Shown here piece by piece: positions 8,568 to 41,294 of a stretch of 41,294 bases of DNA. The DNA is from Octopus sinensis. Its lineage: Eukaryota. The notes below the pieces were generated by a model that was not told the DNA's origin, did no database searches, and saw only the letters and a list, made by a program, of their open reading frames with translations. The DNA lies in NCBI RefSeq assembly GCF_006345805.1, contig NW_021835377.1, positions 1-41,294 of the forward strand, written 5' to 3'. The stretch's first letter is position 1. Each line of letters begins with the position of its first letter. The translations under genes and the position numbers were made by a program.

Positions 8568-8966
8568 TTAACCCAAGTTATCTCCATGGTGGTCTTTGGC
8601 ATGTTGGTAGAGTATAGAAGACTGTTTTCTGTCGTCAAGTTGTCTTAGATGTTCATTTATCCGTTCCGCAATGCTCTTAGACATCTCCTCTATGTACATC
8701 ATGTTCATGTCCTTACAAGCACCTTCTATGCATCTTATATTGTAAACTACACTTCGAGTTCTACAGTTAATACCAGGGCTAATTCTACATGTCATGCAGT
8801 TATCAATTGTGCATATGGTATTCTTAAACGGACATTCCTTCATAATGTGTGACCTGATGGAGTTCCTTGGCTTTTCAACAATTTTAATGTTGAGTTTGGT
8901 CTCTTTCAGAGCTTTTCTAAATCTAAGGGCTAGTTCTCCATGGGCTGTGGTCTCTACTAATATCAC
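8568..8966 (-). mobile_element. Penelope-like element GIY-YIG endonuclease remnant
   Basis: CTIDNCMTC...CRTRSVVYNIRC...MYIEEMSKSIAERINEH...SILYQHAKDHH: Cys linker plus the VVY/YIG, R..EH and H motifs of Penelope GIY-YIG domains. Confidence 0.85.
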
Positions 8967-9067
8967 TCCTTGAATTTTTACTGGTGAGTGTGTATTTAAT
9001 AATAAGGCACTAAAAGAGAAAGACTCTCCCCAGACACAAACAGAATATCACTGTTTTCGCTAATTAC

Positions 9068-10371: not shown

Positions 10372-10464
<93 letters not shown>

Positions 10465-11103
10465 CATAGGTATATATTGACAGATATATGTATATACATA
10501 TAGATATTTAAACATATAAGGATGGCCATAATGGGACATCCGACTCGCTAGAGAGAGCAGTTAACTCCAAAAAAGCGTAAAAGTGCATGTCATGTCTGAA
10601 TAATATTTTCGAGAGTTATTCCCTCTGCACATTATAATTTAATAAAGTAATATAATTATATGTAAGGAAAGTAACTCTGAGAGTTTATCTAGTGGTCTCC
10701 CTTCCGAGAGAATTATAATATTCAGGGAAGTAACTGTAGAAGATACTGTGTAGTTATCTCCCTTAAGTATGTAGTTATCGTAATATAGACTTTGTCGCTC
10801 TTAGACTCTTTCAGTTATTTCACTGTGACCATGGTGGAGCACCGCCTTTAGTCAAGCAAATCAACCACAGGAATTATTCTTTGTATGCCTATTACTTAAC
10901 GTATAGGTCTCTTTTGCAGAACCGATAAGTTACGGGGACGTAATTTCGATATACTGATTTAGTAGTATTTATTTTATTGTAAAAATTTCAATTATCATAA
11001 ATTATGGGCTAGGAAGATTATAAAACTTTTTTGATATACCTATTGGCTCCTTGTGAGTGTGGGACTGTATTTATGTGAATGTGGATATTTTCAACTCAGT
11101 GTT

Positions 11104-11134
<31 letters not shown>

Positions 11135-11562
11135 TGTGTGTGTGTGTGATGAGTGTTTTTATTTCTGTGTCTCCAATATAGCCTCGGACAGACCCAACAT
11201 TTCTGAGTAGATTTGGTACACGGAAAAAGAAAGTAGCCCGTGGTATATAGATAGGTGTGTATATATATATATACTAAGTAATTAAGGTTTAGCACGATTT
11301 GCCTCACCACACACCGAGTTATAGAAAGAGCAGTCAAAGAGTTATAGCTATTCTTTCTACTAAAAGGGAATCTCAGTAAAACCACACACTTAAAGGCTAT
11401 TTCTAAACTCGGTGTGTGTTGAGGCAAATCGTTGCTAAACCCTTAATTACATTGTATTACTTGAACTTTCTTCGAATGGGGCTTTTACATACAGAAATCT
11501 ACTTGGTGAAATTAATGATTATTGCAAATTAATTAATTTCTCCCTATATTATTACTGATAAC

Positions 11563-11598
<36 letters not shown>

Positions 11599-12300
11599 CA
11601 TAGGTATATATTGACAGATATATGTATATACATATAGATATTTAAACATATAAGGGGTTGCATAATGGGACATCCTACTCACTAGAGAGAGCAGTTAAAC
11701 TCCAAAAAATCCTAAAAGTCTGTCATGTCTGAATAATATATTCGAGAGTTATTCCCCCTTCACATTATAATTTAATAAAAGTAATATAATTATATGTTAG
11801 AAAAGTAACTCTGGAAGATGTTATCTAGTTATCTCCCTTCCGAGAGTTAATTTCCTAAATATTATTTTATTATTGTTAATTTATAATATTCAACGGAAGT
11901 AACTGTAGAAAATACTTTGTAGTTATCTCCCTTAAGTATGTAGTTATCGTAATATACACTTGTCGCTGTTAGACTCTCAGTTATTTCACTGTGACCGTTG
12001 GGAGCACCGCCTTTAGTCAAGCAAATCAACCACATGAATTATTCTTTGTATGCCCATTACTTAATGTATAGGTCTCTTTTGCAGAACCGATAAGTTACGG
12101 GACGTAATGTTCGATGTACTGATTTAGTAGGTATTTATTTATTGTAAGAACTTCAATTATCATAAATTATGGGCTATGAAAGATACTAGAAACTTTTTGA
12201 TAGACCTATTGGGGCTCCTTGTGTGTGTGGGACTGTTTTTATTTATGTGAGTATGGGTATTTTCATTTCAGTCTTTGTGTTTGTGTGAACGTTTTATTTC
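10285..12300 (+). repeat. Direct tandem duplication (~0.88-kb unit: SINE piece, microsatellites, AT-rich GTAACTCT/AGTTATCTCCC module, SINE 3' piece)
   Basis: 10285-11165 matches 11169-12300 once the 11274-11562 insert is removed. A third copy of the AT-rich module lies at about 14760-15360 and a diverged one at about 19200-19540. Confidence 0.85.
11274..11562. mobile_element. Short head-to-head (inverted) insertion in (TA)n, related to the 545-bp array unit; Penelope-pLTR-like
   Basis: 11279-11332 is the reverse complement of about 11396-11449. It shares GCTATTTCTA, GGCAAA, CTAA.CCCTT, GAATGG, ACTTGGTGAAATT and AATTAATTAATTT..CCCT with the array unit. It is absent from the paralogous site at about 10380-10425. 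Confidence 0.75.
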
Positions 12301-17145: not shown

Positions 17146-18958
17146 AAACTTAGATAAAACTTAGAATATGTTTCGACAAAGATTGGTCCAGGCTATGTCT
17201 AACTTAATAGCCCACCATTTAATAGGATTATTCGAATCCTGTTTAAGTCAAGTTTTGTTCAAGTAGTGAGTTCTTGTTGGGTGAGTTGTATCCAGTTTTG
17301 TTCAAGTAGTGAGTTCTTGTTGGGTCAGTTGTATCCTATTATGGGTGGCTTATCTGGTATTCTTTGAAGGAATCTATCCAGACTCCGTTTAAAGTTGATG
17401 GGATCCTTTTCCTCTTTGATCTCTTTCGGACAATGTTAATAGGGCATGGCCTGTTGAGGAAAGAAATTATGTTGCAGTGTACATGTATGTTGTCATCTTG
17501 AATTGGGCAGGGGACGTATAGCCCGTGGTCCAAGTTTGGATGAACCTTGAAGCTATGTTTAGGTCGTTTGGGCATAGTTGGCGTATATTTTCCCACATCG
17601 TCAAATGATGTACCGCTCACGGCAACGCTGGAGGGAGTAAAGTTTCAAGGCTTTACGGACGGGGATCCCAATAATCGAGAGCAGCATGCCTTCAATTCGT
17701 TTAGTGAGAGCCCCTGGGGCTGGGACTCAATTCTGGAGATATTTTGTCTTGTGTGGGAGACCACAGTGGGCAGCAGTATTCAAGGTGTGGCCGTACAAAG
17801 GAAGAAAAAGTGGTATGATGACACCTTGTTCTCTGGACCGGAAAGTTCTTAAGATCCAGGAACTCATCCTACGAGCTATATCGACCTTCTTGTTGATGTG
17901 TGCACTCCAACTGAGATCGTCATCAACAATACACCCAGGTCTCTGATATTGTTAGAGGCTGTGAGCGGTTCCCCTGAAGGAAGAGAGTATGGCTGTTTAG
18001 TGAGGAGTTTCTTCCAAAATGCATCAGCTCAAATTTTCCCTCGTTCAGTTGCATTTTGTTTCTGTCTGCCCATTGACTCACAGCATATAGATCAGACTGG
18101 AGTTGAGTTCGGTCTGCTTCTTCATTGACGATTGCTGGAGCTTGGTGTCATCAGCAAATATTTTCACTTTGCAGTAATGTACGACACTGGAAAGGTCGTT
18201 TATGTAGATTATGAAGAGTAGCGGACCCAAGACAGTCCCCTGGGGGACACCGCTGGTGACTTTTGCTGGGCTTGAGTGGACTCCATCAACTACAACATGT
18301 TGTGTTCTATTCGCAGGAAATACTTGATCCAGTGTAGAACTTTTCCACGGATTCCAACATTTGCCAATTTTGAGAGTAGGATATTATGGTCTACGCTGTC
18401 GAACGCTTTACTGAAGTCAAGATATATGACATCAGAGTTCGAACCTGTTCCCAAGGCTTTGAGTACATCTTCAATGTGTTGTAAGAGCTGTGTTAGACAG
18501 TCCCTGCCACAGCGAAAGCCATGCTGATTTGCATTTAGTAGTTTCTGGGTCTCCAGGAAGTCAGCCATCCTTGATCTTAACACTCTTTCAAACACTTTGA
18601 TGATGTGGGAGGTGAGTGAGATTGGGCGATAGTTGAGTGCGAGGGATCCGTTTCCCTGTTTGAAAACCGGGATGATTGACTGGGATAGAAACTGTTTTGG
18701 TATATAACATGCATCTAACCAATTTCTCCAGAGGTTGGTCAGTGGGACTGCAGGTTGGTGTTTACATTCCTTCAGGAGACTAGCGGGGAATCTATCAGGG
18801 CCTACAGCAGAGTAGTATTTGACCTCATTTATTGCTGCTACGATGTCAGTGGGAGTGAAGGTTATGTCTGCAATTTTGTGTTGGGAGTCAACTTCGTTCG
18901 TTTCTCTTGCGTCAATATCAGTGGGAACACTAAAGACAGCAGTATTTTTTCTGCAATA
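17146..18958 (-). mobile_element. 5'-truncated CR1-clade LINE (RT and C-terminus), copy 1
   Basis: ORF 18290-19048 has NYRPISLTSHIIKVFER, NQHGFR..RDCLTQLL and VIYLDFSKAFD, followed by GVPQGTVLGPLLF, FADDTK and VRPHLEYCCPLWSP. Short tandem tail (CTAAGTTT(T)AT). Frameshifted. Confidence 0.92.
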
Positions 18959-19571
18959 TATATATAGAGAGAAACATGTATATACATATAGATATTTATA
19001 TATATGTATATGTGTGTATGTTTCGGTGTCCCCAAAACCGCCTGACAACCAATGCCGATGTTTTTCTCACTGTTAACTTATCCGTTCGGGAAAAGCAGAC
19101 CAACAGAATTAATACTAGACTGACGTAGATAAAGGTCCTAGTGTCGATTTGCTCTAGAAAAGCTGTGCTCCAGCATTGGCACAGCGAAATGACTAAACAA
19201 GGAAAACAGCAAAAGTGTATGCGTTACGTCTGAACATTATATTGTAGAGTTAATTAGCTTCCATAATACATTTTGATAATCGTCGTTACGTATTTAAATG
19301 TAAGGGAGGTAACTTTTGAATATTTTTCTTAGTTATCTCCCTTTCTAGAGTTACACCCCATGCATATTATTAATTATTAAATTATATAATATGCAAGGTA
19401 AGTCACTTGCGAAGGAAGATAACTCCGAAATCTTCCAGAGTTACTTCCGTTACATCTAATTAAATTATGATATTCAAGGGAAGTAACTCTAGAAAGAGAA
19501 ATAGGTACAAAATTTTGCAGAGTTACTTCACTTACATGTAATTACATTACGATTGGTGTTCCGGTTGGGGT

Positions 19572-19650
19572 TGGATTAGGGTTATGGTTGTGGTTAGGGT
19601 TAGGGGGTTAGGGTCAGGGTCGGGGTTAGGTTGGGGTTAGGGTTAGTGTT
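19572..19650 (+). repeat. Degenerate (TTAGGG)n telomere-like tract
   Basis: TTAGGG, TCAGGG, TTGGGG, TTATGG and TTAGTG variants in tandem. Confidence 0.85.
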
Positions 19651-22600
19651 AGCCTCGTTCACACATCATGCGTCCATACAAACACGCCTCGTTCACCGCC
19701 ATGCGTTCATACAAACAAGGCTCGTTCACCCGTCATGCGTCCATACAAACAACCTGGTTCATACACCATGCGTCCATACATACACGCCTCGTTCACACAT
19801 CATGCGTCCACACAAACAAGCCTCGTTCACACATCATGCGTCCATACTCGCCTCGTTCACACATCATGCGTCCACACAAACAAGCCTCGTTCACACATCA
19901 TTCGTCCATACAAACAGGCCTCGTTCATACATCATGCGTCCATACATACACGCCTCGTTCATACATCATGCGTCCATACACGCCTCGTTCAAACATCATG
20001 CGTCCACACAAACAAGCCTCGTTCACACATCATTCGTCCATACAAACAGGCCTCGTTCATACATCATGCGTCCATACATACACGCCTCGTTCATACATCA
20101 TGCGTCCATACACGACTCGTTCAAACATCATGCGTCCACACAAAGAAGCCTCGTTCACACATCATGCGTCCATTCAAACAGGTCTCGTTCACCCGTCATG
20201 CGTCCATACAAACAAGCCTCGTTCACACATCATTCGTCCATACAAACAAGCCTCGTTCACACATCATTCGTCCATACAAACAAGCCTCGTTCACACATCA
20301 TGCGTCCATACATACACGCCTCGTTCACACATCATGCGTCCATACAAACAGGCCTCGTTCACACATCATGCGTCACACAACCAAGCCTCGTTCAAACATC
20401 ATGCGTCCATAACAACAAGCCTCGTTCACCCGTCATGCGTCCATACAAACAAGCTCGTTCACACATCATGCGTCCATACACACATGCCTCGTTCACACAT
20501 CATGCGTCCATACACACAAGCCTCGTTCACACATCATGCGTCCATACACGCCTCGTTCACACATCATGCGTCCACACAAAGAAGCCTCGTTCACACATCA
20601 TGCGTCCATTCAAACAAGCATCGTTCACACATCATGCGTTCATACAAACAAGTCTCGTTCACCCGTCATGCGTCCATACAAACAAGCCTCGTTCACACAT
20701 CATTCGTCCATACAAACAAGCCTCGTTCACACATCATTCGTCCATACAAACAAGCCTCGTTCACACATCATGCGTCCATACATACACGCCTCGTTCACAC
20801 ACATCATGCGTCCATACAAACAGGCCTCGTTCACCACATATGCGTCCACACAACCAGCCTCGTTCACACATCATGCGTCCATAAACAAGCCTCGTTCACC
20901 CGTCATGCGTCCAAACAAACAAGCCTCGTTCACACATCATGCGTCCATAAACACAGCTTCGTTCACAATATGCGTCATACACACAAGCCTCGTTCACACA
21001 TCATGCGTCCATACACGCCTCGTTCACACATCATGCGTCCCACAAAGAAGCCTCGTTCACACATCATGCGTCCATTCAACAGGTCTCGTTCACCCGTCAT
21101 GCGTCCATACAAACAAGCCTCGTTCACACATCATTCGTCCATACAAACAAGCCTCGTTCACACATCATTCGTCCATACAACAAGCCTCGTTCACACATCA
21201 TGCGTCCATACATACACGCCTCGTTCACACATCATGCGTCCATACAAACAGGCCTCGTTCACACATCATGCGTCCACACAACCAAGCCTCGTTCAAACAT
21301 CATGCGTCCATACAAACAAGCCTCGTTCACCCGTCATGCGTCCATACAAACAAGCCTCGTTCACACATCATGCGTCATACACACATGCCCGTTCACACAT
21401 CATGCGTCCATACACACAAGCCTCGTTCACACATCATGCGTCCATACACGCCTCGTTCACACATCATGCGTCCAACACAAAGAAGCCTCGTTCACACATC
21501 ATGCGTCCATTCAAACAAGCATCGTTCACACATCATGCGTTCATACAAACAAGTCTCGTTCACCCGTCATGCGTCCATACAAACAAGCCTCGTTCACACA
21601 TCATTCGTCCATACAAACAAGCCTCGTTCACACATCATTCGTCCATACAAACAAGCCTCGTTCACACATCATGCGTCCATACATACACGCCTCGTTCACA
21701 CATCATGCGTCCATACAAACAGGCCTCGTTCACACATCATGCGTCCACACAACCAAGCCTCGTTCACACATCATGCGTCCATACAAACAAGCCTCGTTCA
21801 CCCGTCATGCGTCCAAACAAACAAGCCTCGTTCACACATCATGCGTCCATACACACAAGCTTCGTTCACACATCATGCGTCCATACACACAAGCCTCGTT
21901 CACACACATCATGCGTCCATACACGCCTCGTTCACACATCATGCGTCCACACAAAGAAGCCTCGTTCACACATCATGCGTCCATTCAAACAATCATCGTT
22001 CACACATCATGCGTTCATACAAACAAGTCTCGTTCACCCGTCATGCGTCCATACAAACAAGCCTCGTTCACACATCATGCGTCCATACAAACAGGCCTCG
22101 TTCACACATGCGTTCATACGAACAAGCCTCGTTCACACATCATGCGTCCATACAAACAAGCCTCGTTCACACATCATGCGTCCATACAAACAGACCTCGT
22201 TCACACATCATGCGTTCATACAAACAGGCCTCGTTCACACATCATGCGTCCATACAAACAGGCCTCGTTCACCCGTCATGCGTCCATGCAAACCAGCCTC
22301 GTTCACACATCATGCGTCCATACAAACAGGCCTCGTTCACACATCATGCGTCCATACAAACAGGCCTCGTTCACACATGCGTTCATACGAACAAGCCTCG
22401 TTCACACATCATGCGTTCATACGAACAAGCCTCGTTCACACATCATGCGTCCATACAAACAGGCCTCGTTCACACATCATGCGTTCATACAAACAAGCCT
22501 CGTTCACACATCATGCGTCCATACAAACAGGCCTCGTTCACACATCTTGCGTCCATACACACAAGCCCCGTTCACACATCATGCGTCCATACAAACAGGC

Positions 22601-23268
22601 CTCGTTCACACATCATGCCTCCATACAAACCAGCCTCGTTCACACATCATGCGTCCATACAAACAAGCCTCGTTCACACATCATGCGTCCATACAAACAA
22701 GCCTCGTTCACCCGTCATGCGTCCATACAAACAAGCCTCGTTCACCCGTCATGCGTCCATACAAACAATGCTCGTTCACCCGTCATGCGTCCATACAAAC
22801 AGGCCTCGTTCACACATTATGCGTCCATACAAACAAGCCTCGTTCACACATCATGCGTCCATACAAACAATGCTCGTTCACCCGTCATGCGTCCATACAA
22901 ACAGGCCTCGTTCACACATCATGCGTCCATACAAACAAGCCTCGTTCACCCGTCATGCGTCCATACAAACAATGCTCGTTCACCCGTCATGCGTCCATAC
23001 AAACAAGCCTCGTTCACACATCATGCGTCCATACAAACAAGCCTCGTTCACACATCATGCGTCCATACAAACAGGCCTCGTTCACACATCATGCGTCCAT
23101 ACAAACCAGCCTCGTTCACACATCATGCGTCCATACAAACAAGCCTCGTTCACACATCATGCGTCCATACACACAAGCCTCGTTCACACATGCGTCCATA
23201 CACACAAGCCTCGTTCACACATGCGTTCATACATACAATCCTCGTTCACACACCATGCGTCCATACAT
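19651..23268 (+). repeat. 34-bp tandem satellite, ~107 monomers, consensus GCCTCGTTCACACATCATGCGTCCATACAAACAA, with higher-order repeats
   Basis: Monomer read directly; 30- and 31-bp variants are present; marker CAAAGAAG recurs at 20141, 20577, 21043, 21478 and 21952. Confidence 0.97.
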
Positions 23269-23278
23269 AGATTTTCAT

Positions 23279-23600
23279 AAATTCAGGGACATTTAATTCA
23301 GGGGCAGGTAATTAAGGGACAGGTATTCCAGGGGCAGGTAATTCAGGGGCATGTAATTCAGGGGCAGGTAATTGAGGGGCAGGTAATTCAGTGGCAGTTA
23401 ATTATGGGGAAGGTAATTCAGGGCAGATAATCCAGGGGCAGGTAATTCAGGGGAAGGTAAATCAGAGGAATATAAATGAGGGTCAGGTAATCCAGGGTTA
23501 CGTAATTCAGGGGCAGGTAATTTACAAGTGCATGTAATTCAGGGTCATATAACTCGGGGGCAGGTGATTCAGGTGCATGTAACTCAGGGGCAGGTAAGTT
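23279..23600 (+). repeat. 15-bp G-rich minisatellite (AATTCAGGGGCAGGT)n, ~21 degenerate copies
   Basis: Direct reading. Confidence 0.92.
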
Positions 23601-24370: not shown

Positions 24371-26140
24371 TATTGCAGAAACATACTGCTGCTGTCTTTA
24401 GTGACTCCCAACACAAAATTGCAGACATAACCTTCACTCCCACTGGCATCGTAGCACAGCAATAAATGAGGTCAAATACTACTCTGCCGTAGGCCCTGAT
24501 AGATTCCCAGTTAGTCTCCGGAAGGAATGTAAACACCAACTTGCTGTCCCACTGACCAACCTATGGAGGAATTCATTAGATGCAGGTTATATACCAAAAC
24601 AGTTTCTATCCCAGTCAATCATCCCGGTTTTCAAACAGGGAAACGGATCCCTCGCACTCAACTATCGCCCAATCTCACTCACCTCCCACATCATCAAAGT
24701 GTTTGAAAGTGTTAAGATCAAGGATGGCTGACTTCCTGGAGACCCAGAAACTACTAAATGCAAATCAGCATGGCTTTCGCTGTGGCAGGGACTGTCTAAC
24801 ACAGCTCTTATACCACATTGAAGATGTACTCAAAGCCTTGGGAACAGGTTCGAACTCTGATGTCATATATCTTGACTTCAGTAAAGCGTTCGATATCCTA
24901 CTCTCAAAATTGGCAAATGTTGGAGTCCGTGGAAAAATTCTACAGTGGATCAAGTATTTCCTGGCGAATAGAACACATGTTGTAGTTGATGGAGTCCACT
25001 CAAGCCCAGCAAAAGTCACCAGCGGTGTCCCCCAGGGGACTGTCTTGGGTCCGCTACTCTTCATAATCAACATAAACGACCTTTCCAGTGTCGTACATTA
25101 CTGCAAAGTGAAAATATTTGCTGATGACACCAACTCCAGCAAATCGTCAATGAAGAAGCAGACCGAACTCAACTCCAGTCTGATCTATATGCTGTGAGTC
25201 AATGGGCAGACAGAAATAAAATGCAACTGAACGAGGGAAATTTGAGCTGATGCATTTGGGAAGAAACTCCTCACTAAAACAGCCATACTCTCTTCCTTCA
25301 GGGGAACCGCTCACAGCCTCTAACAATATCAGAGACCTGCGTGTAATTGTTGATGACGATCTCAGTTGGAGTGCACACATCAACAAGAAGGTCGATATAG
25401 CTCGTAGGATGAGTTCCTGGATCTTAAGAACTTTCCGGTCCAGAGAACAAGGTGTCATCATATCACTTTTTTCCTCCTTTGTACGGCCACACCTTGAATA
25501 CTGCTGCCCACTGTGGTCTCCTCACACAAGACAAAACATCTCCAGAATTGAGTCCCCAGAGGGCACTCACTAAACGCATTGAAGGCATGGCTGCTCTCGA
25601 TTATTGGGATCGCCTTAAAGCCTTGAAACTTTACTTTACTCCCTCCAGCGTCGCCGTGAGCGGTACATCATTTGTACGATGTGGAAAATATACCGTCAAC
25701 TTTGCCCAAACGCCCTAAACATTAGCTTCAAGGTTCATCCAAGACTTGGACCACGGCTATACGTCCCCTGCCCCCAATTCAAGATCACAACATACATGTA
25801 CACTGCAGCACAATTTCTTTTCCTCAACAGGCCCTGCCCTATTTAACATTGTCCCGAGAGAGATCAAAGAGGAAAAGGATCCCATCAACTTTAAACAGAG
25901 TCTGGATAGATTCCTTCAAAAATACCAGATAAGCACCCATAATTGGATATAACTCACCCAACAAGAACTCACTACTTGAACAAACTGGATACAACTCACC
26001 CAAGAACTCACTACTTGAACAAACTTGACTTAAACAAAACTTGACTTAAACAGGATTCGAATAATCCTATCAGGTGGTGCTATTAAGTTAGACATGGCCT
26101 GGACCAATCTTTGGTCGAAACATATCTAAGTTTATCTAAG
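24371..26140 (+). mobile_element. 5'-truncated CR1-clade LINE, copy 2 (inverted duplicate of 17146-18958)
   Basis: ORFs 24580-25197 and 25250-25573 carry the same RT motifs. It has the same 5' truncation point (ATATTGCAGAAA), the same upstream flank and a CTAAGTTTATCTAAG tail. Confidence 0.92.
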
Positions 26141-26334: not shown

Positions 26335-26340
26335 ATATAT

Positions 26341-29042
26341 AATTTCAACAATTGAGGGCAAAATTAATTAATTATTAATCAATTTCACCAAGTGTTCAGT
26401 ATGCAAAGGGACCATTCAAGGCGAATTCAAATTATTACATTATATAAAAGGGCTTAGTAAAATAAATTACTTTGCCGCATACTGAACTCATTAGAAATAG
26501 CAGCTAAAAAACTTTTTTAAAACTATTTCTAATACTTAAAGAAAATCTCTCTCATATATAGTGTTTGCTTAATTCAACTCACAAAAGTTTGGGGGTAAGG
26601 ACATCGAAAAATCAAATGCTAAGGTTATTCGAGAACGTACGTTTCAAGATTAGTCAAAACAACATTTCTATCATCGGCTCAGAAATTCCTTGGTTTGGAT
26701 TTGGAAACACTGAAAATAAGAACATACCCTTTCGAAGATCTGCTTCCAACTAACAGTGCCAACAAATTCAAATAAGCAAGCGAAGAATCTCTGTTCTCCC
26801 CTTTCCACCAGCGTGGGTTAAAATCATCAAACACTATGCTTATTTCGATTTCGGTAAAATCCGAAGCATTAATCAGAGGGAGATTAATTATAATTTCAAT
26901 CAACAATTGAGGGCAAAATTAATTAATTATTAATCATTTCACCAAGTGTTCAGTATGCAAAGGGACCATTCAAGGCGAATTCAAATTATTACATTATATA
27001 AAAGGGCTTAGTAAAATAAATTACTTTGCCGCATACTGAACTCATTAGAAATAGCAGCTAAAAAACTTTTTTAAAACTATTTCTAATACTTAAAGAAAAT
27101 CTCTCTCATATATAGTGTTTGCTTAATTCAACTCACAAAAGTTTGGGGGTAAGGACATCGAAAAATCAAATGCTAAGGTTATTCGAGAACGTACGTTTCA
27201 AGATTAGTCAAAACAACATTTCTATCATCGGCTCAGAAATTCCTTGGTTTGATTTGGAAACACTGAAAATAAGAACATACCCTTTCGAAGATCTGCTCCC
27301 AACTAACAGTGCCAACAAATTCAAATAAGCAAGCGAAGAATCTCTGTTCTCCCCTTTCCACCAGCGTGGGTTAAAATCATCAAACACTATGCTTATTTCG
27401 GTTATTTCGGTAAAATCCGAAGCATTAATCAGAGGGAGATTAATTATAATTTCAACAATTGAGGGCAAAATTAATTAATTATTAATCAATTTCACCAAGT
27501 GTTTAGTATGCAAAGGGACCATTCAAGGCGAATTCAAATTATTACATTATATAAAAGGGCTTAGTAAAATAAATTACTTTGCCGCATACTGAACTCATTA
27601 GAAATAGCAGCTAAAAAACTTTTTTAAAACTATTTCTAATACTTAAAGAAAATCTCTCTCATATATAGTGTTTGCTTAATTCAACTCACAAAAGTTTGGG
27701 GGTAAGGACATCGAAAAATCAAATGCTAAGGTTATTCGAGAACGTACGTTTCAAGATTAGTCAAAACAACATTTCTATCATCGGCTCAGAAATTCCTTGG
27801 TTTGGATTTGGAAACACTGAAAATAAGAGCATACCCTTTCGAAGATCTGCTCCCAACTAACAGTGCCAACAAATTCAAATAAGCAAGCGAAGAATCTCTG
27901 TTCTCCCCTTTCCACCAGCGTGGGTTAAAATCATCAAACACTATGCTTATTTCGGTAAAATCCGAAGCATTAATCAGAGGGAGATTATTATATAATTTCA
28001 ACAATTGAGGGCAAAATTAATTAATTATTAATCAATTTCACCAAGTGTTCAGTATGCAAAGGGACCATTCAAGGCGAATTCAAATTATTACATTATATAA
28101 AAGGGCTTAGTAAAATAAATTACTTTGCCGCATACTGAACTCATTAGAAATAGCAGCTAAAAAACTTTTTTAAAACTATTTCTAATACTTAAAGAAAATC
28201 TCTCTCATATATAGTGTTTGCTTAATTCAACTCACAAAAGTTTGGGGGTAAGGACATCGAAAAATCAAATGCTAAGGTTATTCGAGAACGTACGTTTCAA
28301 GATTAGTCAAAACAACATTTCTATCATCGGCTCAGAAATTCCTTGGTTTGGATTTGGAAACACTGAAAATAAGAACATACCCTTTCGAAGATCTGCTCCC
28401 AACTAACAGTGCCAACAAATTCAAATAAGCAAGCGAAGAATCTCTGTTCTCCCCTTTCCACCAGCGTGGGTTAAAATCATCAAACACTATGCTTATTTCG
28501 GTAAAATCCGAAGCATTAATCAGAGGGAGATTAATTATAATTTCAACAATTGAGGGCAAAATTAATTAATTATTAATCAATTTCACCAAGTGTTAGTATG
28601 CAAGGGACCATTCAAGGCGAATTCAAATTATTACATTATATAAAAGGGCTTAGTAAAATAAATTACTTTGCCGCATACTGAACTCATTAGAAATAGCAGC
28701 TAAAAAACTTTTTTAAAACTATTTCTAATACTTAAAGAAAATCTCTCTCATATATAGTGTTTGCTTAATTCAACTCACAAAAGTTTGGGGGTAAGGACAT
28801 CGAAAAATCAAATGCTAAGGTTATTCGAGAACGTACGTTTCAAGATTAGTCAAAACAACATTTCTATCATCGGCTCAGAAATTCCTTGGTTTGGATTTGG
28901 AAACACTGAAAATAAGAGCATACCCTTTCGAAGATCTGCTCCCAACTAACAGTGCCAACAAATTCAAATAAGCAAGCGAAGAATCTCTGTTCTCCCCTTT
29001 CCACCAGCGTGGGTTAAAATCATCAAACACTATGCTTATTTC
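26341..29042 (-). repeat. Left arm of the palindromic array: ~4.9 tandem copies of a ~545-554-bp non-coding unit (ribozyme strand is minus)
   Basis: The same short ORF recurs at 26565, 27119, 27672, 28218 and 28761; the arm begins directly after (TA)n. Confidence 0.97.
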
Positions 29043-31168
29043 ACTTGGTGAAATTGATTAATAATTAATTAATTTTGCCCTCAATTGTTGAAATTATAAT
29101 TAATCTCCCTCTGATTAATGCTTCGGATTTTACCGAAATAAGCATAGTGTGTTGATGATTTTAACCCCGCTGGTGGAAAGGGGAGAACAGAGATTCTTCG
29201 CTTGCTTATTTGAATTTGTTGGCACTGTTAGTTGGGAGCAGATCTTCGAAAGGGGTATGTTCTTATTTTCAGTGTTTCCAAATCCAAACCAAGGAATTTC
29301 TGAGCCGATGATAGAAATGTTGTTTTGACTAATCTTGAAACGTACGTTCTCGAATAACCTTAGCATTTGATTTTTCGATGTCCTTACCCCCAAACTTTTG
29401 TGAGTTGAATTAAGCAAACACTATATATGAGAGAGATTTTCTTTAAGTATTAGAAATAGTTTTAAAAAAGTTTTTTAGCTGCTATTTCTAATGAGTTCAG
29501 TATGCGGCAAAGTAATTTATTTTACTAAGCCCTTTTATATAATGTAATAATTTGAATTCGCCTTGAATGGTCCCTTTGCATACTGAACACTTGGTGAAAT
29601 TGATTAATAATTAATTAATTTTGCCCTCAATTGTTGAAATTATAATTAATCTCCCTCTGATTAATGCTTCGGATTTTACCGAAATAAGCATAGTGTTTGA
29701 TGATTTTAACCCACGCTGGTGGAAAGGGGAGAACAGAGATTCTTCGCTTGCTTATTTGAATTTGTTGGCACTGTTAGTTGGGAGCAGATCTTCGAAAGGG
29801 TATGTTCTTATTTTCAGTGTTTCCAAATCCAAACCAAGGAATTTCTGAGCCGATGATAGAAATGTTGTTTTGACTAATCTTGAAACGTACGTTCTCGAAT
29901 AACCTTAGCATTTGATTTTTCGATGTCCTTACCCCCAAACTTTTGTGAGTTGAATTAAGCAAACACTATATATGAGAGAGATTTTCTTTAAGTATTAGAA
30001 ATAGTTTTAAAAAAGTTTTTTAGCTGCTATTTCTAATGAGTTCAGTATGCGGCAAAGTAATTTATTTTACTAAGCCCTTTTATATAATGTAATAATTTGA
30101 ATTCGCCTTGAATGGTCCCTTTGCATACTGAACACTTGGTGAAATTGATTAATAATTAATTAATTTTGCCCTCAATTGTTGAAATTATAATTAATCTCCC
30201 TCTGATTAATGCTTCCGGATTTTACCGAAATAAGCATAGTGTTTGATGATTTTAACCCACGCTGGTGGAAAGGGGAGAACAGAGATTCTTCGCTTGCTTA
30301 TTTGAATTTGTTGGCACTGTTAGTTGGGAGCAGATCTTCGAAAGGGGTATGTTCTTATTTTCAGTGTTTCCAAATCCAAACCAAGGAATTTCTGAGCCGA
30401 TGATAGAAATGTTGTTTTGACTAATCTTGAAACGTACGTTCTCGAATAACCTTAGCATTTGATTTTTCGATGTCCTTACCCCCAAACTTTTGTGAGTTGA
30501 ATTAAGCAAACACTATATATGAGAGAGATTTTCTTTAAGTATTAGAAATAGTTTTAAAAAAGTTTTTTAGCTGCTATTTCTAATGAGTTCAGTATGCGGC
30601 AAAGTAATTTATTTTACTAAGCCCTTTTATATATGTAATAATTTGAATTCGCCTTGAATGGTCCCTTTGCATACTGAACACTTGGTGAAATTGATTAATA
30701 ATTAATTAATTTTGCCCTCAATGTTGAAATTATAATTAATCTCCCTCTGATTAATGCTTCGGATTTTACCGAAATAAGCATAGTGTTTGATGATTTTAAC
30801 CCACGCTGGTGGAAAGGGGAGAACAGAGATTCTTCGCTTGCTTATTTGAATTTGTTGGCACTGTTAGTTGGGAGCAGATCTTCGAAAGGGTATGTTCTTA
30901 TTTTCAGTGTTTCCAAATCCAAACCAAGGAATTGCTGAGCCGATGATAGAAATGTTGTTTTGACTAATCTTGAAACGTACGTTCTCGAATAACCTTAGCA
31001 TTTGATTTTTCGATGTCCTTACCCCCAAACTTTTGTGAGTTGAATTAAGCAAACACTATATGAGAGAGATTTTCTTTAAGTATTAGAATAGTTTTAAAAA
31101 AGTTTTTTAGCTGCTATTTCTAATGAGTTCAGTATGCGGCAAAGTAATTTATTTTACTAAGCCCTTTT

Positions 31169-31172
<4 letters not shown>
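29043..31172 (+). repeat. Right arm of the palindromic array: ~3.9 tandem copies of the same unit, inverted (ribozyme strand is plus)
   Basis: Reverse-complement copies with ~545-bp period; the arm ends in (TA)n. Confidence 0.97.
29298..29354 (+). ncRNA. Variant minimal type I hammerhead ribozyme. Representative of 9 copies: + at 29298, 29843, 30390, 30933; - at 26628-26684, 27182-27238, 27735-27791, 28281-28337, 28824-28880
   Basis: Stem I UUC(U)GAG/CUCGAA; core CCGAUGA (U4C); stem II UAGA...UCUU (U-U closing); GAAA; palindromic stem III CGUACG; cleavage triplet GUU. Confidence 0.6.
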
Positions 31173-31200
<28 letters not shown>

Positions 31201-31225: not shown

Positions 31226-32078
31226 ATCGCCTTAATCCGTATGTCTGTCTTTGTTTGTCCCCTCTGTGTTTAGCCTCTTATGGGTAGTAAAGAAATAGGT
31301 ATTTCGGCTGCCGCTACGCTCTGAGTTCAAATTCCGCTGAGGTCGACTTTGGCTGCCATTTCTAGCATATGGATATCCTTCTTGAAGGCCTGATCGATTT
31401 GCTTGACTAAATGCGGTGCTCCAGCATGGCCACAATTAAATGACTGAAACAAGTAAAATAAAAGAACATATATATATATATATATATATGTTTTGATTTT
31501 CCTTGTTTCAGTCATTTGACTGTGGCCATGCTGGAGCACCGCATTTAGTCGAGCAAATCAATCCCAAGACATTATTTTTAACCTAGTATGTATTCATACA
31601 TACACACACACAAACACACACACATATGTGTGTTTTCATTTCTGTGTCTGCGTGCGCGCGAGTTTCCAGTTCATTGTTTGTGCGTGTGTGTGTGTGTGCG
31701 CGCGCTAGTGTATGCGTGTGGGCGTGCGTGTGGGCGTGTGTGTGTGAGTGTGTAACTGTGTATTTTCATTTGTGTGTGTGTGTGTTTGTCCCTATGTGTG
31801 TGTGCGTGTGTGAGTGTGAGTGTGTCTGAGTATTTTCATTTCTGTGTGTGAGTGTTTCAGTGTGTAACTGTGCATTTTCAATTTTGTGCATGAATGTGTG
31901 TGAGTGTTTGTGTGTGTGTCGTTACGCACGCACGCACTGGTGTCGAAAGGCACAAACGCACACATACACACACGCAATTGAAAATACAGTCACACACGCA
32001 CAGACACGCACACACACACACACACCACGCACGCTCGCGCACACACACACACAAACACACACACACACAAAAACACAC

Positions 32079-32762: not shown

Positions 32763-33323
32763 TGGCGCGACCGGGTGCTTGGCGGTATAACCGGGTGGGC
32801 AGACTGGGCTCGTTAGCCTTGGTTGACAGCCAGTCTAGGAGAAGGAAAACTCTGACTCCAAACCCTCGCTCCGCTGCCTTGCGGATGCTCTTGGGAGAGG
32901 GAAAGGCTATGGGAGTAAACCCAGACAGAAAATCCGGAGTGGAGCCCTGAAGGCGGTAGGGTGTCGAATCTCGACCCTTTTCCGGCAACTCCTGCAGCCA
33001 ACCAGACTCCAAACGTACTGCACTGCATTCCTTTGGATTATGTCTGGGGGCCCGAGAGGGAGATTCTGGTGTCTGGGCAGCCCAGTGTCTTCGTTCCTAC
33101 CGCCCAGGCTTGCGCCATGGAGAAACTACTCCATCGATGGAACAAGCTGAGATGGCAGTTACGAGTTTTAAGCCAGGGTGAATTGGCGTAATCCCGGGCG
33201 CTACGGGTCTCTAACGGTGGGAGGGATCATTGAAGTCCCACTGGTCAGCTACCGCCCGCCTTAAGCTGGGCACCCCCCGGCCAATAATGGTGCTAAGCCG
33301 CCACAGACTGCCCGCTTCAATGG

Positions 33324-36300
33324 GTGCTTGGAGCTAGGACAAAATCTGAAAAGCAGACTGAAAACCCTGCACCAGCAAACAAAGGAAAAACAAATACCCA
33401 GTCTCCAGTCTTGCGACTGGCCACCTGGAATGTCAGGACCATGTGCCCTGGCATCATTGACGATCTACGACAGATGAACGACAGTAGGAAGACAGCAGTC
33501 ATCAACACCGAATTGAAAAGGCTGAACATCGACATAGCGGCGCTGCAAGAGACCAGGCTCGCCGCAGACGGCATGCTACGGGAGAAGGACTACACCTTCT
33601 ACTGGCAGGGGAGACCCGTCGAGGAGGCCCGCCAGCATGGCGTGGGGTTTGCCGTGAGGAACAGCTTGCTCCCCATGGCGATCCCTCCTTCAAATGGCTC
33701 AGAGCGCATCCTCACTCTTGGCCTTGCAACATCAACGGGGAAGGTAAACATAATTAGTGCTTATGCCCCAACACTCCACTCTCCTCAGAAAATAAAAGGC
33801 CGGGTCTATGAGGAGCTCGCGCCACCATCAGCCAGATACCAGGGTCGGAGCCCATCTTCCTTCTGGGCGACTTCAACGCAAGGGTGGGATGATTCGATCA
33901 TGGGGCATGGCCAGACTGCCTTGGACGCTTTGGCGTGGGGAAGATGAATGAGAATGGCCAGAGACTGTTGGAGCTTTGCTCTTACCGGAAACTCTGCGTT
34001 ACCAACACATTCTTCACGACTAAGCCACAACACCGGGTCTCATGGAGGCACCCAAGGTCCGGACACTGGCACCAACTGGACATGGTCATCACCCGGCGAG
34101 CCCACCTCGGCAGTGTGCTTCTCACACGCAGCTACCATGGTGCTGACTGTGATACAGACCACTCTCTTGTGTGCAGTAGGGTCCGATTGGCCCCAAAGAA
34201 AATCCGCCGTCCCGTAGGGAAAAGCCGCCCACGCATCAACACCGCCAGGACAACCAACCCCGACCTCCGCTCGGAATTCACCAACCGCATGGAGGAGGCC
34301 CTTAAAGATCACGCAGCCACGTCCATCGAGGAGAGATGGCAGCTTATTCGCGACACCACTTGCAGAATAGTCATGTCATCCCTAGGAAAGAGGGAGCGGA
34401 GAAATCAAGACTGGTTTGAGGCTCACCTGCCTGAGATGGAGCCTGTCATTGCTGCCAAGAGGGAAGCACTGGTCAACTATAAGCGCGACCCATCAGAAAA
34501 GAACCTGGCTACTCTAAGAACAGCCAGAAGTGACGCCCAGAGGACGGCCAGACGTTGCGCCAACATCTACTGGCAGAACCTATGCCAGAACATCCAGTGC
34601 TGTGCTGACAGTGGTAACGTGAAAGGGATGTACGAGGGGATGAAGAAGCATTCAGGCCCACTGTCAGCAAGGTTGTTTTACTGAAGTCCAGGGATGGCGA
34701 GGTCATCAAGGACCAAGCGAAGCAGATAGAGAGGTGGGTCGAGCATTACCAGAACCTCTACTCCACTGAGAATGTGGTCACCAGGTCTGCCCTCGCCGGC
34801 ATTCCTGCTCTGCCTGTCATGGAGGAGCTTGACCTGCCTCCAACAAAGGAAGAACTGAGCAAAGCAATTGACTCACTCGCTCGGGGCAAGGCACCAGGGC
34901 AAGACGGCATCCCCGCAGAAGTCATTCAGTGCGGGAAGCCAGCCCTTCTGGGCCATCTCCACGAGCTGCTCTGTCAGTGCTGGGAGGAGGGCTCTGTCCC
35001 TAAGGATATGCGTGACGCAAACATCATCACACTGTATAAAAACAAAGGGGACAGAAGCGACTGTAATAATTACAAGGGCATATCCCTGCTCAGCACTGTC
35101 GGTAAGGCATTTGCCAGGGTGGTCCTGAAGAGGTTGCAAATGCTTGCAGAGCGTGTGTACCCCGAGTCTCAGTCTGGCTTTAGGGCAGAGAGGTCTACAA
35201 TCGACATGATCTTCTCACTCAGGCAGCTTCAAGAAAAGAGTCGAGAACAGAGCAGCCCCTATACGTGGCCTTCATCGACCTGGCTAAGGCGTTCGACTCA
35301 GTCAGCAGGGAGGGGCTGTTTGCGCTCCTGGGTAGGATATGTTGCCCTCCCAGACTGCTGAAACTCATCACCTCCTTTCACGATACGGTATGCAGGGAAC
35401 AGTGCAGTTTGACGGATTGCCCTCGGAGTCGTTCGCCATCCAGAGTGGAGTGAAACAGGGTTGCGTTCTGGCGCCGACGCTCTTCGGAATTTTCTTCTCC
35501 CTTGTCCTGTCCTATGCCTTCAGAACGTCCGACGACGGAGTGTTCCTCCACACCAGGGCTGATGGTGGGTTGTTCAATCTTGCGCGCCTCAGAGCTAAGA
35601 CCAAAGTCCGTCAGGTGCTGATCAGAGAGATCCTCTTTGCTGACGATGCCGCCCTAACATCACACAACCAGCCGGGTCTCCAGAGGCTGTTCAGCTCCCT
35701 GGCGGATGCCTGCCAAGAGTTCGGCCTTACCATCGGCCTGAAAAAGACAGAGATCATGGGCCAGGACGTCGGAGGGGTCCCCAGCATCAGTGTCGGCGAC
35801 CACAGCTTGCAGGTGGTGAACGAGTTCACTTACCTGGGATCGACGGTCTCCAGCAGCCTGTCCCTCGAGCCGGAGCTGAACAGACGGATTGGGAGGGCTG
35901 CTGCTGCCATGGCTAAGCTCTCCAGGAGAGTGTGGGAAAACAACATGCTCACAATAACCACCAAGATCGCGGTGTACCGAGCCTGCGTGCTGAGCACCCT
36001 ACTCTACGGCAGCGAGAGCTGGACAACATACACCCGGCAGGAATGCCGCCACATGCGGTGTCTTCGACGGATCCTTGGCATCTCCTGGAAGGACCCAGTA
36101 CCAAACGGAGTCATCCTGGAACAGACTAATATGCCAAGCATGCATGCCCTCCTCGTGCGGAGACGACTGCGCTGGCTCGGACACGTCTGCCGCATGCAGG
36201 ACGGTCGCATGCCTAAAGACATCCTGTACAGCGAACTCACCACGGGATCCCGACCCAAGGGACGTCCACAGCTACGATACAGGGATGTGTGCAAGCGCGA

Positions 36301-36556
36301 CCTGAGGACTGCCAACATCTGTGTGGACACGTGGGAGGTAACAGCTGCTGGCCGCTCTGCCTGGCGTCGGACAGTGAGGAAAGGCGTTTCCATGGCTGAG
36401 GAAAGGAGAGCACAGCCGTGGTCGGACAGGAGGAGGACAACTGCAGCAACACCCCACACGTACCCATCGATGTTCGTGTGCAGCAACTGTACCAGGGACT
36501 GCCACTCTAGAATTGGACTGTTCAGTCACAGCAGACGCAGCACATCATCAAAGTAG
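33324..36556 (+). pseudogene. RTE polyprotein (APE endonuclease, reverse transcriptase, C-terminal C2H2), frameshifted
   Basis: ORFs 33324-33947 (LATWNVRTM, DIAALQETR, GVGFAV), 33935-34684 (HWHQLD, DTDHSLV), 34774-35361 (KNKGDRSDCNNYKGISLL, QSGFR) and 35339-36556 (GVKQGCVLAPTLF, LFADDA, CSNCTRDCHSRIGLFSH). Confidence 0.93.
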
Positions 36557-36780: not shown

Positions 36781-37346
36781 ATCGCCTTAATCCGTATGTC
36801 GTCTTTGTTGTTGTCCCCTCTGTGTTTAGCCTCTTGTGGGTAGTAAAGAAATAGGTATTTCATCTGCCGCTACGCTCTGAGTTCAAATTCCGCCGAGGTC
36901 GACTTTGCCTGCTATTTCTAGCATATGGACAGCCTTCTTGAAGGCCTGATCGATTTGCTTGACTAAATGCGGTGCTCCAGCATGGCCACAGTCAAATGAC
37001 TGAAACAAGTAAAATAAAAGAACATATATATATATGTTTTGATTTTCCTTATTTCAGTCATTTGACTGTGGCCATGCTGGAGCACCGCATTTAGTCGAGC
37101 AAATCAATCCCAAGACATTATTTTTAACCCTAGCGGTTCTTGTCAAGCGATGTTGGAGGGGGGAGGGGGTAAACAGACACACACACACACTCACACACAC
37201 ATATATGTATACATTTATATACGATGGGCTTCTTTCAGTTTCCATCAACCAAATCTATTCATACATACACACACACAAACACACACACATATGTGTGTTT
37301 TCATTTCTGTGTCTGCGTGCGCGCGTGTTTCTAGTTCATTACTTGT

Positions 37347-40151: not shown

Positions 40152-41294
40152 CTAGCAGCATAGCCCGGCGTTGCCCGGGTATGTAAGAGCCCCTAATAGG
40201 CAACGACTAATCCCAATGTAGTCCTTTCCCTCCAGGGAACGAAGGTGCATGTGGACGTTGCAATGTCTTGTCTTCACTGGAATACTTCTGTATATACGAT
40301 GTTCCTAGCTGTCCGTTTGGGCGAAAACATGAAAACATCATTGCGCCTCCCAACGCGTGAACAGCCCACGTAGAGTTGACCGTGGGCGAAGCACTGTTCG
40401 CCCAAATGTAACCCAGCGACTTGTAGCGTTTGGCCTTGGGATTTATTGATGGACATTGCGAAGCAGAGTTTAACAGGAAACTGAGAACGCCTGAAGTGGA
40501 TTGAAGGTGCATCCGGCCGCCGTTATTAAATGTGGTGCCAAATGTTTCACAACCAAACGTGTGCCGTTTGCACTGTTTAGGTGGAACCAAATTCCTGATG
40601 AGCATAATGGGCGCACCGACTTTTAACTTCAGGATGTGTGGTGGCAGGCCTGGCGGTTCAAGTGAATTCAGGAATTCAACAGGATAATCGGCAAGCCGGG
40701 CGGGGTCTGCTGTCTATCTATAGATTTGTAGACGTGGACATCACCAGGAATAGCTTCAAGTAGCTGGACATTGATGGAGTTGACGGTTGTATTTTTGGGT
40801 GCGAGAATAGCTCTGCCTGCCAGCCATTTTAGGTCGCGTAAATTGTTTGTAGGTCGTGGAAGACAGCGTCCCGGAGGCTAACAGGGGTGTCGACAATGGT
40901 GCAAAGTGAGTCCAATTGAACGTAGCCATCCGCATCAGACAGCATCCTATTTTCACCGAGCGATAAGAGGTCCCTGGAGAATGCAGCGGATCCGCTGTCA
41001 CCAATTAACTGCGCGCGCATGTTAGTTTGGAGGTGCAAGGGCCGCACATGTGCCAAAGAGCTGACGACTTAAGGCACGCGCACACGGCATCGGCACGGGT
41101 TCCTGTTGGAATAACAGTAGAGTCTGCCTGAAGTCTCCTGAAAGAAGTAAAGTTAATCCTCCCATGGGGGGGACCGTAGAGTCTCTGATGTCTTGCAGGG
41201 ACCTGTCCAGTGCCTCAAGGGCGCCTTTGTGTGCCATAGTGCACACGTCCCATACGATGAGCTTGCATCTGCGCAGAATGTCAGCCTGTTCTGA
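40152..41294 (-). mobile_element. Helitron 3' end: frameshifted Pif1-like helicase C-terminus, terminal hairpin and CTAG; runs off the window
   Basis: Helicase motifs [49 protein letters not shown] and [11 protein letters not shown]...[13 protein letters not shown]...NIVYTEVF*. Hairpin CCCGGGCAACGCCGGG (40179-40164), then CTAG (40155-40152) followed by T. Confidence 0.95.

Follow-up and report, generated by a model that had tools for sequence, protein, structure and literature searches.

A head-to-head insert in a (TA)n microsatellite of Octopus sinensis: two truncated copies of a 581-nt non-coding repeat, probably primed at two sites of one RNA

In L1 twin priming, both ends of the target DNA prime on one RNA, which leads to an inversion; the position of the second priming varies, and there is hardly any overlap between the two pieces. 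For Penelope-like elements, the accessible text of PMC8557442 and PMC11167929 describes the origin of inverted copies and of one-sided tails as an open problem. Non-LTR retrozymes are non-coding, occur as circles, and have been proposed to originate from Penelope elements and to depend on Penelope-like elements for their mobility (PMC7229834 and bioRxiv 10.64898/2026.07.22.740005, accessible parts). The octopus repeat annotation, in the accessible portion of PMC13282606, does not mention ribozymes.

The window, which is the whole stretch of DNA analyzed here, comprises 41,294 nt of O. sinensis contig NW_021835377.1 (assembly GCF_006345805.1). The first-pass annotation had described in it an insert of about 290 bp in (TA)n with a minus and a plus arm; this was confirmed and both arms were mapped on a repeat unit of 581 nt (Table 1). 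The outer end of the A arm is site A of the unit, and its last TA is common with the microsatellite, with positions 11271-11273 ambiguous. The B arm extends about 105 nt beyond site A, and this extension is the tail. As had been claimed, the geometry of the ends is that of the large array of the window: end A lies just after CTAAACCCTTAATTACTTAG and end B about 105 nt further on (about 198 versus 296 in the array). The insert had also been called a diverged mini-relative of this array. Its homology to the array stands (70.7% identity over 123 nt, E 3e-9); however, it is not a mini-element, but a doubly 5'-truncated copy of the 581-nt unit which lacks the ribozyme region, as follows from the unit intervals of its two arms.

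Table 1. Positions of the insert, its target site, the large array and predicted RNA features in the window.
Feature	Position	Strand	Remarks
Head-to-head insert, 289 bp	11274..11562		between (TA)7 and (TA)10
A arm, 5'-truncated copy	11274..11397	(-)	unit ~65/68 to 194; minus arm also read as 11271/4-11394, unit 68 to 194
B arm, 5'-truncated copy	11396..11562	(+)	unit 133 to ~299
Head-to-head junction	11396..11397		GC compatible with both arms; 2-nt microhomology, by eye
(TA)7, left portion of target microsatellite	11260..11273
(TA)10, right portion of target microsatellite	11563..11582
Empty paralogous site, (TA)22	10380..10423		upstream copy of ~0.9-kb tandem duplication
Hairpin predicted in the RNA, directly 5' of site B	11505..11543	(+)	98.8% of cells paired, 17 sequences, no two-sided change
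B arm of large array, 546-nt family	26338..29042	(-)	~5 units
A arm of large array, 546-nt family	29042..31178	(+)	~4 units; last bases common with (TA)n
Hammerhead-like motif in one array unit	29296..29358	(+)	core CCGATGA...GAAAC, palindromic helix III

When the insert is removed from the sequence, its site aligns with the (TA)22 of the upstream copy. The insert had been reported as absent from this duplicate site (at about 10380-10425), and the site is indeed empty; however, flank identities of 80/87 and 588/626 bases indicate that it is a diverged paralog rather than the very allele into which the insertion took place. L308 and the first copy in L307 are likewise empty, while L002, L003 and the second copy in L307 hold the same insertion, which therefore predates those duplications. 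In the paralog L307:1283-1508 the A arm is present as in the insert, while the first 74 nt of the B arm, at the centre of the insertion, are missing, which abolishes the inverted repeat. Another paralogous (TA)n site, L306:213-979 (G000:C8862), contains a different tandem element of 478 nt with an inverted arm, in which a hammerhead-like core was seen by eye on the minus strand. No target-site duplication of the insert was readable inside (TA)n, and inference of such duplications within (TA)n was rejected. The two arms of the insert differ at 3/54 sites, no closer than other copies, in line with the age of an insertion that predates several duplications. As a truncated and fairly old copy, the insert is an ordinary member of an already known class of elements. 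The flanking duplicated DNA, at 11620-11900 and 10490-10760 (-), resembles the start of the A-B module described below (CTGCTCTCTCTAG) and possibly represents an older family member; similar pieces are also found in L178 and L182.

With the plus arm as query, 1281 candidates were obtained from the O. sinensis genome, of which 40 were scored, and a 19-mer common to both arm types has 942 exact matches in the genome (control, 0). The 581-nt tandem unit was derived from 100 loci and is numbered from the base after the predicted hammerhead cut; its longest ATG-started ORF has 37 aa, and contigs of four sequencing runs cover parts of the family. The 546-nt family of the large array shows 4817 exact matches of its motif in the genome (control, 0) and a longest ATG-started ORF of 68 aa. 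Units of 581 and 546 nt align along their whole length, and the two families are by this alignment homologous. Both are tandem, non-coding, dispersed in multiple copies and without LTR.

Full units contain the hammerhead core YUGAUGA...GAAAC...NUH, with a short and palindromic helix III, and the helix I pairs vary between families yet remain paired by eye. According to the motif and this pairing, the 581-nt unit carries a putative hammerhead, with predicted self-cleavage. An Rfam scan of the window and five loci found no hammerhead, only microsatellite or palindrome matches below gathering scores, and constrained folding recovered only helices I-II in the 581-nt family and no hammerhead fold in the 546-nt family. 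In the latter, 8/72 arm 5' ends lie at +5 to +15 versus none in the 16 nt before the predicted cut, and the corresponding numbers in the 581-nt family are 8 and 4, of 139 ends. This small excess just after the predicted cut hints that linear cleaved templates are used too.

The region around sites A and B, the A-B module, was found in at least two more families. One of them, in L269-L285, is also non-coding, with a hammerhead helix I peculiar to this family and with arms placed head-to-head. In the search for a coding partner, a foreign piece of 94 nt in L069 led to a non-coding family; a 902-nt "unit" from the same trail was discarded as a segmental duplication. RNAalifold on 17 sequences of several families predicted a long stem around site A and a hairpin just before site B. 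In the predicted module, 94% of the cells pair versus 34-48% in slid controls, and one copy folds at z -3.4. Covariation is suggestive only, with 12 two-sided cells (0/500 shuffles) but 4 pairs (116/500), on a structure derived from the same alignment. The A-B module is a candidate for protein binding. In addition, the motif CACGCTGGTGG(G/A)A is found 3' of site B, at about 29150-29180 and in every array unit, and is present in both families despite low surrounding identity; it is a possible promoter or binding element.

The outer ends were mapped in two samples. For the 581-nt family, L031-L100 were taken in genome order, which avoids selecting complete ends; nine of these 70 loci were dropped as duplicates and 61 were kept, which are most, not all, of 100 listed matches among 942. 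For the 546-nt family, 40 clusters were obtained from 100 listed matches among 4817. The ends fall in two clusters, which contain 91/94 ends of the 581-nt sample and 69/69 of the 546-nt sample. In the 581-nt family, site A ends lie at 174-200, with 40 of them at 194, and site B ends lie at 284-308, around +290-300, where BLAST appends a few TA-matching bases. By inspection, the two-armed loci of this sample have one A and one B end in 32/32 cases. These include L068 and L077, scored as B because the B terminus is reached after an internal jump, and L073, whose B arm is very short; L072 and L076, which are broken by other sequence, were left uncounted. With independent choice of ends at most half of the insertions would be A+B (0.5^32 = 2e-10). 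In the 546-nt sample, 30/31 two-armed loci are A+B and one is B+B (L234), and the array of the window is also A+B. One-armed loci amount to 27/61 and 9/40 in the 581- and 546-nt samples, respectively (36/101): 22 end at A and five at B in the former, where the anchor misses short B arms, and three at A and six at B in the latter. Opposite-strand pairs of the 19-mer, among the 100 matches listed, are head-to-head in 22/22 cases and never tail-to-tail.

A TA run of at least 8 nt was found next to 60/64 and 61/62 ends, against a flank background of 8.8%, which supports the earlier proposal of a two-ended integration targeting (TA)n. The modal ends correspond to RNA positions that themselves read TA or ATA, which would fit pairing of a primer over 1-4 nt. 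The tail is not linked to the longer arm: among 74 pairs, the A arm extends farther in the 5' direction in 33 and the B arm in 23, both end within 10 nt in 18, and B stops short of A in only 4/74. Arms in L017, L068, L077 and L231 open with the B terminus and continue from a position farther upstream, the switch in L077 being at a common CCCT, which suggests template jumps soon after priming. The expected bimodal distribution, with one end of each type per insertion, was thus recovered, the latter in two-armed insertions only, and neither random scatter of the ends nor a lack of homology between the two families was found. Likewise, two sites about 100 nt apart are conserved across both families as had been proposed, while their role in priming is what we infer.

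Both arms of an insertion appear to derive from one template, as they share rare alleles. Alleles with a frequency of at most 10% are common to both arms in 34/84 cases in the 581-nt family (shuffled mean 0.011, maximum 0.071) and in 38/60 cases in the 546-nt family (shuffled mean 0.012, maximum 0.186). Among 49 two-armed 581-nt loci, 44 of which had enough overlap, the arms differ by 2.3% within an insertion and by 4.9% from other insertions. Whole units inside one array differ by 0.39% when taken from the same arm and by 0.28% when taken from different arms (17 pairs in either comparison), while units of different arrays show 5.4% (136 pairs). The 5' reach of paired arms correlates, with rho values of 0.50 (n=28), 0.63 (n=30) and 0.22 (n=16, a score-selected set), and their 5' ends coincide within 10 nt in 8/28 and 7/30 pairs (expected on permutation 2.8 and 0.9); in the initial set, which was selected by score, the coincidence did not reach significance (3/16, p 0.12). 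Neither arm contains the other in 15/74 pairs, including the insert studied here. However, the central loss of 74 nt in L307, read as a later deletion, weakens the argument from containment, since non-nested arms can arise later. Microhomology of at least 2 nt was found at 16/31 and 13/20 resolvable junctions, versus 31 and 27% in controls, a modest enrichment; 28/79 junctions were left out as not resolvable. Finally, 13/30 A arms of the 546-nt family are longer than one unit, which requires a circle or a multimer as RNA template.

A coding partner was sought among 85 endonuclease loci (35, 30 and 20), the best candidates of thousands, retrieved with the GIY-YIG fragment family of the window and with Pfam GIY-YIG matches. 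With the exception of unrelated neighbouring insertions, none of these loci showed a coding element with nucleotide similarity to the 581- or 546-nt family. The 581- and 546-nt units themselves contain no RT and GIY-YIG ORF, by which an autonomous EN+ Penelope-like element is recognized. Intact ORFs of 781 aa (and 775 aa) encoding RT and GIY-YIG, with a CxxxxCxxC motif, were found in L286:1032-3374, L287-L289 and L290, and by this motif we take them to be Neptune-like. The 3' ends of these elements show a variant hammerhead-like motif (TTGATAA core) and adjoin (TA)n. In the window itself, 8571-9047 (-) is a fragment of a Penelope-type endonuclease region. Inverted arms were seen in copies of its family (6743 candidates), the ends being separated by about 55-65 nt, and these copies are not similar to the 581-nt family.

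Other repeats are present in the window. At 19563-23597, 15 copies of GGTTAG, presumably telomere-like, are linked to 108 copies of a 34-bp satellite and to an array of 15-bp repeats. The satellite is flanked by inverted copies, 95-97% identical, of a LINE RT fragment that we assume to be CR1-like (18032-18837 and 24457-25243). A frameshifted LINE with endonuclease and RT frames and 55% GC, which we take as RTE-like, lies at 33297-36556 (+), and helicase-like fragments, presumably Helitron-like, lie at 40207-41294 (-). Short palindromes at 31404-31550 and 36963-37094 consist of (TA)n flanked by halves of a common repeat in inverted orientation.

The insert represents two truncated copies of the 581-nt repeat, and we consider it probable that they were made as two cDNAs primed at A and B of one RNA from the ends of a double-cut DNA by a trans-acting Penelope-type RT/GIY-YIG protein, and then joined. 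Such a protein would cut both strands in (TA)n, and the RNA, as a cleaved monomer, circle or multimer, would be held through its A-B module by a probably dimeric protein. One 3'-TA end of the DNA would pair over 1-4 nt with the RNA at A and the other at B, and the RT primed at B would pass through A and displace the first cDNA. The 3' ends of both cDNAs would then be linked by end-joining, sometimes at short microhomologies or palindromes, with host repair filling in, and extension of one end only would yield a one-armed copy. The 3' ends of the copies always point outward. The accessible text of PMC11167929 provides a precedent in vitro: cutting and extension of both strands, two internal starts that bound a tail, and a predicted dimer. 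Against this reading stand the B+B insertion L234, the lack of a strand difference in the start of the lizard protein (PMC11167929, accessible text), the negative result for a coding partner among the 85 endonuclease loci, the differences between the arms of the insert itself, the modest junction microhomology, the negative Rfam scan with the incomplete hammerhead folds, and the alleles shared by the arms, which also fit fold-back copying or gene conversion. In fold-back copying, a single primed cDNA would prime and copy itself and be resolved or cut at the other site, with later central deletions producing non-nested arms. It accounts for the same-template alleles and for near-symmetric junctions, although these are offset both ways. 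If either arm may be the first, 59/74 pairs fit it without deletion, and the remaining 15/74 require an extra one, of the kind seen in L307. Self-priming has been proposed from junction palindromes (PMC3846280, accessible text) and endonuclease resolution for the tail (PMC8557442, accessible text); however, the copy would need to halt without exception at the site of the opposite type, one-armed copies have either A or B as their end, hence each site acts alone, and in vitro the RT begins at both (PMC11167929, accessible text). We regard this explanation as unlikely.

Two separate RNAs of one source locus, each carried by one protein subunit with asymmetric use of the sites, would avoid strand displacement, and the pairing and shared alleles would follow if one source locus dominates a cell. 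Many variants coexist, yet arms match inside insertions, and the correlated 5' reach and coincident stops are easier to obtain with a single molecule, which makes this reading quite unlikely. Inverted ends, a TA target, tandem arrays and a locus within duplicated segments could also suggest that recombination or cut-and-paste had spread a satellite or a MITE-like repeat, whose terminal inverted repeats would be the arms. The end maps largely refute such an origin at the DNA level: the inner ends are variable 5' truncations, the outer ends are offset by a fixed distance of about 100 nt, and the polarity tracks the hammerhead strand without tail-to-tail pairs. We find it scarcely credible, and a MITE or DNA transposon was rejected for its unequal outer ends, variable inner truncations and inconstant interior. 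Classical L1 twin priming was also rejected. Starting from two primings on one RNA, we tentatively propose, with more doubt than conviction, that Penelope-type integration in general proceeds as an obligately asymmetric two-primer reaction, in which one dimer on one, often circular, RNA would give A to one DNA end and B to the other. Inverted pLTRs and one-sided tails would then be outcomes of a single mechanism, and the conserved structured module of about 170 nt would serve as a transferable signal through which many non-coding families exploit an enzyme with a pLTR that is not recognisably similar in sequence.

These short, young and abundant families provide footprints that can be counted, and the open problem of inverted copies and tails becomes testable, by asking whether the ends are paired one of each and whether a single template serves each insertion. 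In addition, these families tie the spread of retrozymes to Penelope chemistry through insertion structure, not co-occurrence, and yield a compact RNA module that in vitro assays can use. Earlier publications already contain two internal starts, tails, inverted copies and the kinship of retrozymes and Penelope. The two-ended reading, although supported, is thus less new than the first-pass annotation implied, as two internal RT starts and cutting of both strands had been shown in vitro for a lizard Penelope element (PMC11167929, accessible text). Within the literature covered, in its accessible parts, there is no report of one-of-each pairing, of arms from a single template or of a tail of about 100 nt, and relative to it the tail length, the strict A+B pairing and the same-template evidence are new.

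Metazoan non-LTR retrozymes share with the families described here AT-rich non-coding tandem units, dispersed from monomers to multimers, with a type I hammerhead motif that is putative in the present units (PMC7229834, accessible text), and 581 and 546 nt lie inside their range of 51-972 bp (bioRxiv 10.64898/2026.07.22.740005, accessible text). In contrast, neither head-to-head arms nor two fixed ends nor a preference for (TA)n are described in the accessible text of either source, and all three are present here; self-cleavage and circles are putative in the present families, and the 85 endonuclease loci contain no matching pLTR of a coding element. In EN+ Penelope-like elements (PMC8557442 and PMC3846280, accessible text), 5' truncation, partial tandems, an inverted 5'-truncated head-to-head copy, an often one-sided tail, microsatellite bias and junction palindromes with microhomology are likewise found. 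Unlike them, these families have no ORF, a tail of about 100 nt (30-40 in theirs) placed on the longer or the shorter arm, and a nearly absolute A+B pairing. The sites also differ from those of L1 twin priming in being fixed and internal, with arms that usually copy the same stretch. According to the accessible text of PMC11167929, Poseidon of Anolis carolinensis in vitro uses two internal starts downstream of the hammerhead which bound the tail, an AT-rich target with both strands cut and extended, and a start in a stem-loop. Its starts, however, are located where the ORF begins, at a distance of 30-40 nt (a 30-40-bp tail) instead of about 100 nt, and are not homologous to the cut DNA, whereas the ends here fall at TA-like RNA positions; its main text, as far as accessible, reports neither a start site that differs between the strands nor a pairing for each insertion. 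Among the features by which a non-autonomous Penelope-like element is recognized, the inverted 5'-truncated copy, the partial tandems, the tail at one end and the microsatellite bias were found, while sequence in common with the pLTR of a coding partner was not seen in the 85 endonuclease loci. The insert and its families work like such an element, and their anatomy fits that of non-LTR retrozymes.
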